Shown here in pieces: positions 19,252-20,125 of a stretch of DNA of 64,000 nt. The position numbers and the translations under genes were made by a program. Under the pieces are notes generated by a model that ran no database searches, was not told the DNA's origin, and saw nothing but the letters and a program-made list of their open reading frames with translations. This DNA is from Escherichia phage S127 BCL3, in sequence record OQ626344; one strand, 5' to 3'. Position 1 is the first letter of the stretch; every line of letters begins with the position of its first letter.

Positions 19252-19710
19252 TCAACCCTCTTTGTACTCCACCACGATAATATCTATATCAAAAGTGGCA
19301 AGGTTAATAATGTCCTCTACATGTTCCCACTTCAAACCGCCTATGCCGCACCCGATCTTAGGGATGTAGAATGGTAAAATCGACCCCTCAAATACTTCAT
19401 TGACTCGCTCAAATCCTTTCAGTATTGAGAAATATTCAGCATTAGGTCCTGGATAGAACTGAGTATACAGATTTATTCCGTAGACAATACCTCTCGAAGA
19501 TAAGTGCTCCCAACGGGAGAACGCGCCCAGTTTACTTAGGCAACCGTGCATAGTCATTTTATCAGCTTCCAATGCTTGAGGGAATTCACGAGCAATCTGC
19601 TTTGCTACACCCTTCCCCATTGTGTGGAAGCAGTTACAACCGTGGATCAGGTGACCAGCACCGCTCTTAAAAAGGGAGATTAAATCTCCCTCTACAGTAT
19701 CAATAATCAC
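19252..19710 (-). CDS. macro-domain protein (ADP-ribose binding/processing), putative
   Basis: Motif HGCNCFHTMGKGVAKQIAREFP resembles macro-domain signature loop; start set to GTG at Val28 of track ORF with AAGAGGAG SD (track ATG at 19791 would overlap upstream gene by 92 nt). Confidence 0.6.
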   Translation of the reverse strand: MIIDTVEGDLISLFKSGAGHLIHGCNCFHTMGKGVAKQIAREFPQALEADKMTMHGCLSKLGAFSRWEHLSSRGIVYGINLYTQFYPGPNAEYFSILKGFERVNEVFEGSILPFYIPKIGCGIGGLKWEHVEDIINLATFDIDIIVVEYKEG

Positions 19711-20125
19711 GATATTCCAGCTCCTCTTCCACAATTTCAAAAAACTCAGTCCAGCACTGTGGCATATTGGAGTTACCGAAGTGGCTTTCATAGTAAAGGT
19801 TTTTACCGCTCGGAAGATAGAAATCCGTTACCTCATAAAATCCACAATCGTCGCACTCACCTTCTTCAAACTTGGCCTTAACCTTAATGTCGAGGAAGGT
19901 GAAAAGTTTATGGACATCTTCGGTCTCGAACTCCCAACTAATGTTGTTTTCCGCATCGGTGTAAAACTGGATCAGTAGGCCATCATCCATTTTTCCAAAA
20001 TATTCTGTGAAGTAGCTCCCTTCCCAGAAGTCTTTGTGACAAATAATATCCATGCGCTTGCCCATAATAAAGGTGTGGGCGTTTCGTGCATCGTCACGAA
20101 TCAGTTTTGGCATTTCATAAATCAT
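19700..20125 (-). CDS. hypothetical protein coupled to macro-domain gene
   Basis: 141-aa ORF; its stop overlaps the macro-gene start region. Confidence 0.5.
   Translation of the reverse strand: MIYEMPKLIRDDARNAHTFIMGKRMDIICHKDFWEGSYFTEYFGKMDDGLLIQFYTDAENNISWEFETEDVHKLFTFLDIKVKAKFEEGECDDCGFYEVTDFYLPSGKNLYYESHFGNSNMPQCWTEFFEIVEEELEYRDY

Follow-up and report, generated by a model that had tools for sequence, protein, structure and literature searches.

A close described counterpart of the macrodomain gene analyzed here is tk.4 of bacteriophage T4. Our gene lies at 19252-19710 on the minus strand of a 64,000-nt stretch of Escherichia phage S127 BCL3 (record OQ626344; this whole stretch is called the window below). 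On a DarTG2 host, T4 tk.4 was the single HIDEN-SEQ hit (depleted gene), and a clean knock-out of tk.4 sensitised T4 to DarTG2; the gene was named adfM, for “anti-DarT factor macrodomain” (preprint 10.1101/2025.11.20.689424). PhiKZ gp104, independently named AdfM, is a Lys-type DarG-like macrodomain that strips DarT2 modifications from DNA and is needed against DarTG2 (PMC13309987). Macrodomains occur in ~41% of myophages (PMC9503650), and some Vequintavirinae carry a NADAR-type anti-DarTG1 factor (PMC11825919). We found no paper that pairs Vequintavirus with “macro domain” and no paper that tests Vequintavirinae against DarTG2.

Among cellular macrodomains, the most instructive comparison is SCO6735 of Streptomyces coelicolor. 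On DNA, this protein hydrolyses thymidine-linked ADP-ribose with greater efficiency than DarG does, and it rescues E. coli from DarT; all activity is lost on Q85A substitution, and nearly all with N27S (PMC9411070).

The window derives from a Vequintavirus, an rV5-like E. coli myophage with genomes of ~136 kb. The 2.5 kb around the macrodomain gene is 99.2% identical to Escherichia phage B9-1 and 90-98% identical to dozens of other Vequintavirus genomes. In many of these relatives GenBank labels the gene “macro domain protein”, “phosphatase” or “O-acetyl-ADP-ribose deacetylase”. The gene is therefore already known, as it is annotated “macro domain protein” in near-identical GenBank genomes and a role of its family has been reported for T4. 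Because macrodomains are common in myophages, the gene is annotated and the counter-DarTG2 role of the family is reported, its weight as a discovery is limited.

A stand-alone macrodomain of the Tk.4/AdfM family

The ORF (open reading frame) at 19252-19710 is a genuine macrodomain and a member of the Tk.4/AdfM family (PHROG 335). The features on which this section and the next depend are the following.

19252-19710 (-): macrodomain ORF, 152 aa, GTG start at 19710-19708
19579-19644 (-): HGCNCFHTMGKGVAKQIAREFP in the macrodomain ORF, residues 23-44, with the H-x-x-N motif (H23, N26) and putative ADP-ribose-binding loop 1 (M31-G32-K33-G34-V35-A36)
19459-19461 (-): codon (CAG) of Q84, the Gln of the invariant N-L-Y-T-Q motif, where DarG (K80) and TARG1 (K84) have their catalytic Lys
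19336-19353 (-): putative diphosphate-binding loop 2 (GCGIGG, residues 120-125), DarG-like and without Asp125 of TARG1

The first-pass annotation of the window had recognised a glycine-rich loop of the macrodomain type in HGCNCFHTMGKGVAKQIAREFP. Its coordinates and its reading of that loop were correct, and profile search and structure prediction both bear out the domain. The Pfam Macro profile (PF01661) matched over its entire length (positions 1-118 of 118) with 32 bits against a cut-off of 22 (expectation value, E, 1.3e-7), and PHROG 335 matched with E 9e-61. An AlphaFold2 model built on 71 homologues (predicted local distance difference test score, pLDDT, 96.5; predicted template modelling score, pTM, 0.91) shows the three-layer alpha/beta/alpha macro fold. 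When this model was compared to the PDB with Foldseek, 167 matches were obtained at E<=0.001, and the top ones listed are macrodomains or designed proteins matching them. The best were TARG1 (template modelling score, TM, 0.78/0.85), DarG of Thermus aquaticus and of M. tuberculosis, Poa1p, BT1257 and SCO6735, with a probability of 1.00 for TARG1, DarG and Poa1p. On the basis of the model, the protein appears to belong to the ALC1/TARG1-like class of macrodomains.

Sequence searches ranked these relatives somewhat differently. A single-protein search of PDB sequences returned the M. tuberculosis DarG macrodomain as the best match. With a family profile, the same DarG came first (E 2e-18), followed by SCO6735, BT1257 and TARG1, all within one order of magnitude. 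The PADLOC DarG profile matched with E 3e-14 at positions 4-141 of 329, which is the macrodomain part only, and the NCBIfam antitoxin_DarG model (NF048014) matched with E 1e-12 and 48 bits against a cut-off of 250, at positions 3-143 of 338 only. The protein falls short of the DarG equivalog in score, in Lys80, in the C-terminal DarT-binding domain and in an adjacent darT gene. It thus shares with DarG (PDB 5M31/5M3E/5M3I) a best or near-best sequence and profile match, the fold (TM 0.75), the same Asn and a DarG-like loop 2, but it has Gln in place of Lys80, comprises 152 aa rather than ~340, and has neither the DarT-binding domain nor the toxin gene. It is a single domain that stands alone: PADLOC, Pfam and NCBIfam gave no DarT or transferase match for the gene upstream.

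The likeness to T4 Tk.4 extends over the full length of both proteins (41% identity over 153 columns, E 4e-43; 152 aa versus 155 aa). HGCNCFHTMG, NLYTQF-PGPN and IG-GIG are identical in the two, which share PHROG 335 and its invariant H-x-x-N, NLYTQ and G-x-G-x-GG motifs. Both are stand-alone macrodomains encoded in the early-gene array of a large E. coli myophage, and both genes are dispensable on K-12. On the other hand, tk.4 of T4 and of Krischvirus lies in a regB-vs-tk.4-tk context while the Vequintavirus gene has a PHROG 8157 gene upstream, and the DarTG2 phenotype has been shown for T4 only. PhiKZ gp104 is, by its published description, likewise a phage-encoded stand-alone DarG-like macrodomain (PMC13309987), but it has retained a Lys of the DarG type (K78) and is taken up into the phage nucleus.

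Homologues of the macrodomain gene were found by tblastn in 2,811 of 50,697 phage records. The carriers include T-even and other Straboviridae, Ackermannviridae-sized Salmonella phages, Felixounavirus, and large Vibrio, Aeromonas and Pseudomonas phages. Since the closest copies outside Vequintavirus (61-70% identity) sit in Krischvirus-type T4-like phages, in the regB-vs-tk.4-tk context, sequence comparison suggests that Vequintavirus and Krischvirus-type phages exchanged the gene.

An in-frame ATG at 19791, which would give a 179-aa version, was considered as the start of the macrodomain ORF and rejected: the alignments of T4 Tk.4 and 70 other homologues begin at residue 1 of the GTG form. 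In B9-1 the annotated CDS (coding sequence) comprises only 122 aa, using an internal ATG (OQ420740.1 106527-106895, equivalent to 19252-19620 of the window), and this annotation drops the first beta-strand and the H-x-x-N motif.

Predicted active site and substrate

The residues that would form the active site are strongly conserved. N26, G34, A36, Q84 and G120 are invariant in the 71 homologues, and H23, G122 and G125 are at least 90% conserved. The two putative ADP-ribose-binding loops, MGKGVA (31-36) and GCGIGG (120-125), align with the loops of DarG, TARG1 and SCO6735; the counterparts of loop 2 are GVGNGG in DarG, GCGLDR in TARG1 and GCGLAGG in SCO6735. N26 aligns with DarG N22 and SCO6735 N27, and H23 aligns with SCO6735 H24 and with the His of the Poa1p HSCNC motif that is mutated in PDB 6lfs. 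Q84, which was placed by HMMER alignments to 5m3i, 4j5r, 5e3b and 2fg1, aligns with SCO6735 Q85 and with the Gln of BT1257. T4 Tk.4 has the equivalents of H23, N26 and Q84 too.

By alignment, therefore, the phage protein appears to be of the Gln type, with Gln at the position of DarG Lys80 and TARG1 Lys84 and a conserved positioning Asn. TARG1 (PDB 4J5R/4J5S) is the top structural match, and its catalytic dyad Lys84/Asp125 is replaced by Gln84/Gly124 in the phage protein. SCO6735 (PDB 5E3B) and BT1257 (PDB 2FG1/2AFC) share with it the Gln of the N-x-x-x-Q motif, the positioning His and Asn and the glycine-rich loop 2; identity to these two is ~22-24%, SCO6735 has Val25 where the phage protein has Gly24, and SCO6735 is a cellular rather than a phage protein. 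The two also differ from the phage family in the extended mobile loop that follows the Gln in SCO6735, where it is five residues longer and carries Lys89: the profile alignment shows a 5-residue insertion in SCO6735 and a 6-residue insertion in BT1257 relative to the phage family. Because this extension is absent, we describe the phage family as one that looks likely to work like the Gln-type SCO6735/BT1257 subclass and do not class it as a member. It could be supposed that Q84 marks an inactive, binding-only macrodomain; this was rejected, as the Gln-type SCO6735 is active.

Taken together, the best explanation, to which we assign a probability of roughly 0.68, is that the gene encodes a Tk.4-family hydrolase that clears phage DNA of DarT2-derived ADP-ribose, with its upstream neighbor a separate gene. 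The protein would be a stand-alone ADP-ribosyl glycohydrolase, an “orphan antitoxin”, probably expressed early and from host-type promoters. Its substrate would be ADP-ribose on thymidine of single-stranded phage DNA, put there by DarT2-type toxins of host DarTG2 systems, and hydrolysis of the base-ribose bond would allow replication of the phage DNA to continue. Catalysis would follow SCO6735, with H23 and N26 positioning Q84, Q84 holding the distal ribose and water doing the chemistry, a mechanism that would differ from the Lys mechanism of DarG and TARG1. For this explanation the present analysis contributes the macro fold, the family membership and the conserved active-site residues, and the literature contributes the DarTG2 phenotype of T4 Tk.4 (10.1101/2025.11.20.689424) and the biochemistry of SCO6735 (PMC9411070). 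We infer from these that the Vequintavirus protein hydrolyses thymidine-linked ADP-ribose, protects from DarTG2 and is expressed early. The first-pass annotation had suggested that a phage macrodomain could neutralise ADP-ribosylating host defences or regulate a partner enzyme. A counter-defence role is indeed the most likely one and DarTG fits it, given the T4 knock-out phenotype and DarG as the best profile match in defence and PDB libraries; we found no evidence for regulation of a partner enzyme. A link to Thoeris, also raised there, was rejected, as nothing in the data points to it.

Several points weigh against this explanation. The T4 result comes from a preprint and describes a phenotype, not an enzymatic mechanism (10.1101/2025.11.20.689424). 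Identity to T4 Tk.4 is just 41%, and in the Foldseek alignments it is 21-26% to the solved structures of DarG, TARG1, Poa1p and SCO6735. The five-residue-longer mobile loop that the phage family lacks has been proposed to give SCO6735 its high activity on DNA. The promoters are consensus matches only. The Bas54 transposon library described below was grown without a DarTG2 challenge, and in the part covered here of the comparison with clinical isolates neither the macrodomain gene nor its neighbor was conditionally essential. Finally, ALC1-like macrodomains also act on uracil-linked ADP-ribose in RNA (PMC13036486) and on protein-linked ADP-ribose, and the physiological substrate could be different from DNA or broader.

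This last point leads to another possibility, that the protein acts mainly on something other than DarT2-modified DNA. Candidates are RNA carrying ADP-ribose in uracil linkage or otherwise, ADP-ribosylated protein, or a small derivative such as O-acetyl-ADP-ribose or ADP-ribose-1''-phosphate produced by phage sirtuin and RNA-repair enzymes, the last of which would fit the old “A1pp phosphatase” label. GenBank and PHROG call the family “phosphatase” or “O-acetyl-ADP-ribose deacetylase”, and a survey of viral NAD and ADP-ribose systems makes the case that soluble derivatives may be the targets of many phage macrodomains (PMC9503650). Yeast Poa1p (PDB 6LFQ-6LFU), a structural match with E 4e-9, shares the N-terminal HxCNC motif residue for residue, and the Poa1p His and Ser changed by mutation in 6lfs and 6lft are the counterparts of H23 and T30 in the alignment; Poa1p differs in being an ADP-ribose-1''-phosphate phosphatase of tRNA-splicing metabolism. 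Uracil-linked ADP-ribose on RNA is a further substrate of SCO6735, DarG and TARG1, and SCO6735 has activity on protein substrates as well. In Bas54 a sirtuin gene adjoins genes for an RNA ligase, a polynucleotide kinase and a phosphoesterase, but this cluster is unlinked to the macrodomain gene, ~50 kb away, and T4 keeps tk.4 although it has no sirtuin. The sole known phenotype of the family is the DarTG2 sensitivity of T4 without tk.4, and it has been proposed that what unites this macrodomain class is de-ADP-ribosylation of thymidine (PMC9411070). We therefore regard a different main substrate as unlikely, but still worth keeping in view.

The Bas54 sirtuin and RNA-repair cluster occupies 129051-132176 of that genome (bas54_0207 to bas54_0211) and could yield ADP-ribose derivatives for a macrodomain.

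Two modest points are of use. Because Gln is invariant at the position of the DarG catalytic Lys across the Tk.4 family (~2,800 records), its chemistry is predicted to follow SCO6735 and not DarG, which would be useful in the choice of catalytic mutants (Q84A, N26A). In addition, intrinsic protection from DarTG2 is predicted for Vequintavirinae, which have found use in phage therapy cocktails.

The upstream gene and its relation to the macrodomain gene

The first-pass annotation had noticed that the start of the macrodomain ORF overlaps the stop of the ORF upstream, which is correct, and had taken the two to be likely co-translated and a candidate counter-defence pair. The features concerned are these.

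19700-20125 (-): upstream ORF, 141 aa, PHROG 8157, TGA stop at 19702-19700
19700-19710 (-): 11-nt overlap GTGATTATTGA of the macrodomain GTG start with the TGA stop of the upstream ORF, read from the sequence
19721-19726 (-): Shine-Dalgarno-like GAGGAG, 10 nt 5' of the macrodomain GTG and within the upstream CDS, read from the sequence

B9-1, Bas53 and Bas56 have exactly the same GTG, overlap and GAGGAG, and Bas54 shares the 426/459-nt layout and an overlap of 11 nt. Purifying selection acts on both genes (ratio of nonsynonymous to synonymous substitution rates, dN/dS, 0.07-0.13), which are flanked by small phage ORFs.

As the first-pass annotation had stated, the upstream protein carries no recognisable motif: no match was obtained in Pfam (E up to 1), NCBIfam, PADLOC or PDB sequences (E up to 10). 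It is acidic (isoelectric point 4.37, net charge -18), and its family is conserved only in the C-terminal 60 residues (EGECDDCG-Y-V-D-LPSG-Y-E-HFGN-N-P-W-EFF). This family is small, with 12 clusters among 5.8 billion proteins and 176 phage records. Its structure is predicted with confidence (pLDDT 91), and Foldseek found no structural match to the model in the PDB and a best TM of 0.31 in BFVD. A phmmer search of 1.84 billion representative proteins returned only close relatives and two eukaryotic giant repeat proteins (P0109, P0118), and the latter were rejected as homologues, their scores being summed over Cys-rich or immunoglobulin (Ig) repeats. A profile search with 11 family members added one further full-length member only.

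In one homologue (P0115, L011:3001-3429) a Cys-rich segment (CGEIK...NKCKECC) stands in place of the variable N-terminal half, and an HNH-like gene lies ~3 kb downstream. This suggests that the N-terminus of the family has been remodelled by mobile-element activity.

Could the two genes be a co-translated functional pair, with the upstream protein serving as a cofactor, specificity factor or toxin binder, in the manner of the two DarG domains? All Vequintavirus strains that were compared keep the 11-nt overlap, the GTG and the internal Shine-Dalgarno-like sequence, and the genes would be co-transcribed, having a promoter-like site on either side and no terminator in between. The net charge of -18 recalls the DNA-mimicking C-terminal domain of DarG, which is reported to be acidic, and T4 AdfN is reported to need a further phage factor for full activity, a precedent for cofactor-dependent orphan antitoxins. 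Every checkable phage group with the upstream gene also has a Tk.4-type macrodomain gene somewhere.

On the other hand, adjacency of the two genes is confined to Vequintavirus. In Krischvirus the homologue of the upstream gene (Phi1 ORF064, ~38-41% identity) lies directly upstream of dam, which it overlaps, in a dam-nrdC-49 cluster, while tk.4 is found between vs and tk; the two are not within 4 kb of each other. In a third lineage (contigs ~128 kb) no macrodomain gene occurs within 3 kb of the homologue. The macrodomain gene is present in 2,811 phage records versus 176 for the upstream gene, and T4 Tk.4 works without a homologue of it. Nor is the overlap itself unusual: of the 111 same-strand junctions annotated in Bas54, 30 overlap (27%), six of them by exactly 11 nt, and T4 tk.4 overlaps its unrelated upstream gene vs by 4 nt. 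Fusions of the two proteins were not found except for one deletion product.

The two genes have also diverged discordantly. Nucleotide identity of the window to Bas53 is 89% in the upstream gene and 76% in the macrodomain gene, while the corresponding values for Bas56 are 87% and 92%; this discordance implies recombination between the two genes. Transposon insertions in Bas54 were tolerated at 31 of 31 TA sites of the macrodomain gene and at 21 of 23 of the upstream gene, so both are non-essential on K-12. In summary, we found neither adjacency across lineages, nor an overlap rarer than background, nor a common history. The analysis reveals no conserved linkage, and the overlap reflects the tight packing of the gene array, not a two-component system. 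The proposal of a functional pair is thus not supported, and we consider it highly improbable; the upstream gene is most likely a separate accessory gene, unrelated to the macrodomain gene.

When the alleles of the window, Bas53 (L007) and Bas56 (L008) are compared, they form a mosaic: the macrodomain falls into two classes of ~79% and at least 90% protein identity and the upstream protein stays at 90-91%, which suggests that a recombination breakpoint lies at the gene junction or close to it. A natural Vequintavirus variant (L012:1501-1866, Logan ERR11560567, 135.5 kb contig) has a ~500-nt deletion between 9-nt microhomologies. It fuses residues 1-55 of the upstream protein in frame to macrodomain residues 85-152 (protein P0005) and destroys both genes, which would be dispensable in nature if the variant is not an assembly artefact.

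A further possibility is that the macrodomain is the antidote or regulator of a phage-encoded ADP-ribosyltransferase, the upstream gene being the transferase. Other phages do carry toxin-antitoxin-like modules in which a transferase or sirtuin is paired with a macrodomain (PMC9503650), and T-even phages carry Alt, ModA and ModB beside Tk.4. However, the upstream protein has no transferase fold or profile match and no Bas54 gene is labelled as an ADP-ribosyltransferase. As insertions are tolerated at all 31 TA sites of the Bas54 macrodomain gene while the upstream gene is intact, the macrodomain does not act as an essential antidote to a toxic neighbor. We regard this possibility as barely conceivable. 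The upstream protein was likewise rejected as an ADP-ribosyltransferase or DarT, with no support from fold or profile and a dispensable macrodomain gene beside it.

It could be speculated that the upstream protein inhibits an ADP-ribosylating toxin such as DarT2 directly, as an inhibitor of a new type, and that together with the macrodomain it rebuilds the two arms of DarG, enzymatic reversal and toxin binding, as two genes. We consider this a very long shot. A weaker version would make it an independent anti-defence or host-takeover protein with a new fold and another target. As a small, narrowly distributed protein under purifying selection, with a confident unmatched fold, it is a reasonable candidate for an anti-defence screen, not evidence of a new system.

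Expression context and other features of the window

A consensus scan of the 5.5 kb around the two genes found 19 sigma-70-like sites against 9.1 expected. Three candidates stand out.

20245-20273 (-): sigma-70-like promoter candidate TTTACA-17-TATAAT, 11/12, ~120 nt upstream of the start of the 141-aa ORF; TATAAT kept in Bas53 and Bas56; consensus match only
19227-19255 (-): sigma-70-like promoter candidate TTGACA-17-TG-TATAGT, 11/12, serving the next gene; its -35 contains the macrodomain stop codon; consensus match only
18774-18801 (-): sigma-70-type promoter candidate, perfect 12/12 consensus, between small genes

In the site at 19227-19255, Bas53 and Bas56 retain the -35 and the extended -10, but the spacer is variable. 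The scan found no terminator between the macrodomain gene and its neighbor, and two promoter-like sites flank them. This arrangement would fit an early, accessory region transcribed by the host polymerase, as judged from consensus matches.

A strong intrinsic-terminator-like hairpin, GCCCTGCCCGAAAGGGTGGGGC and then ATTTTTGTAT, is found at 20927-20948 (minus strand), immediately downstream of the large ORF 20964-22337. By position this ORF corresponds to a 1227-nt hypothetical gene of B9-1; in Bas54 the counterpart, bas54_0087, was scored as essential. Scans of the whole window revealed neither tRNA genes nor Rfam matches.

Sixteen GenBank records of the MG0656xx series (e.g., MG065635, MG065682 and MG065674) are labelled “Campylobacter phage” with Campylobacter jejuni as host, and they have 92-94% protein identity to the region of the two genes. 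The Campylobacter host label of these records looks questionable.

Outside this region, positions 3300-5900 of the window are ORF-poor and repeat-rich and lie at a switch of transcription direction. An element of the AGCAGGGCAACTAT type is present there in two direct and two inverted copies (5294-5311, 5322-5336, 5354-5371 and 5468-5485), along with a perfect 18-nt inverted repeat (5285-5302 / 5419-5436), three copies of ACTGTTTACGCATA, two copies of GCCATGCCATTCGTTTGCAT and a tandem 15-mer at 5199-5234. GC content falls to 0.34 at 5501-6000, and a sharp dip in GC skew occurs at 4001-4500. By position, this stretch corresponds to the ~2 kb intergenic region of Bas54 that has no HIDEN-SEQ transposon insertions, and it is a candidate replication origin or regulatory region.

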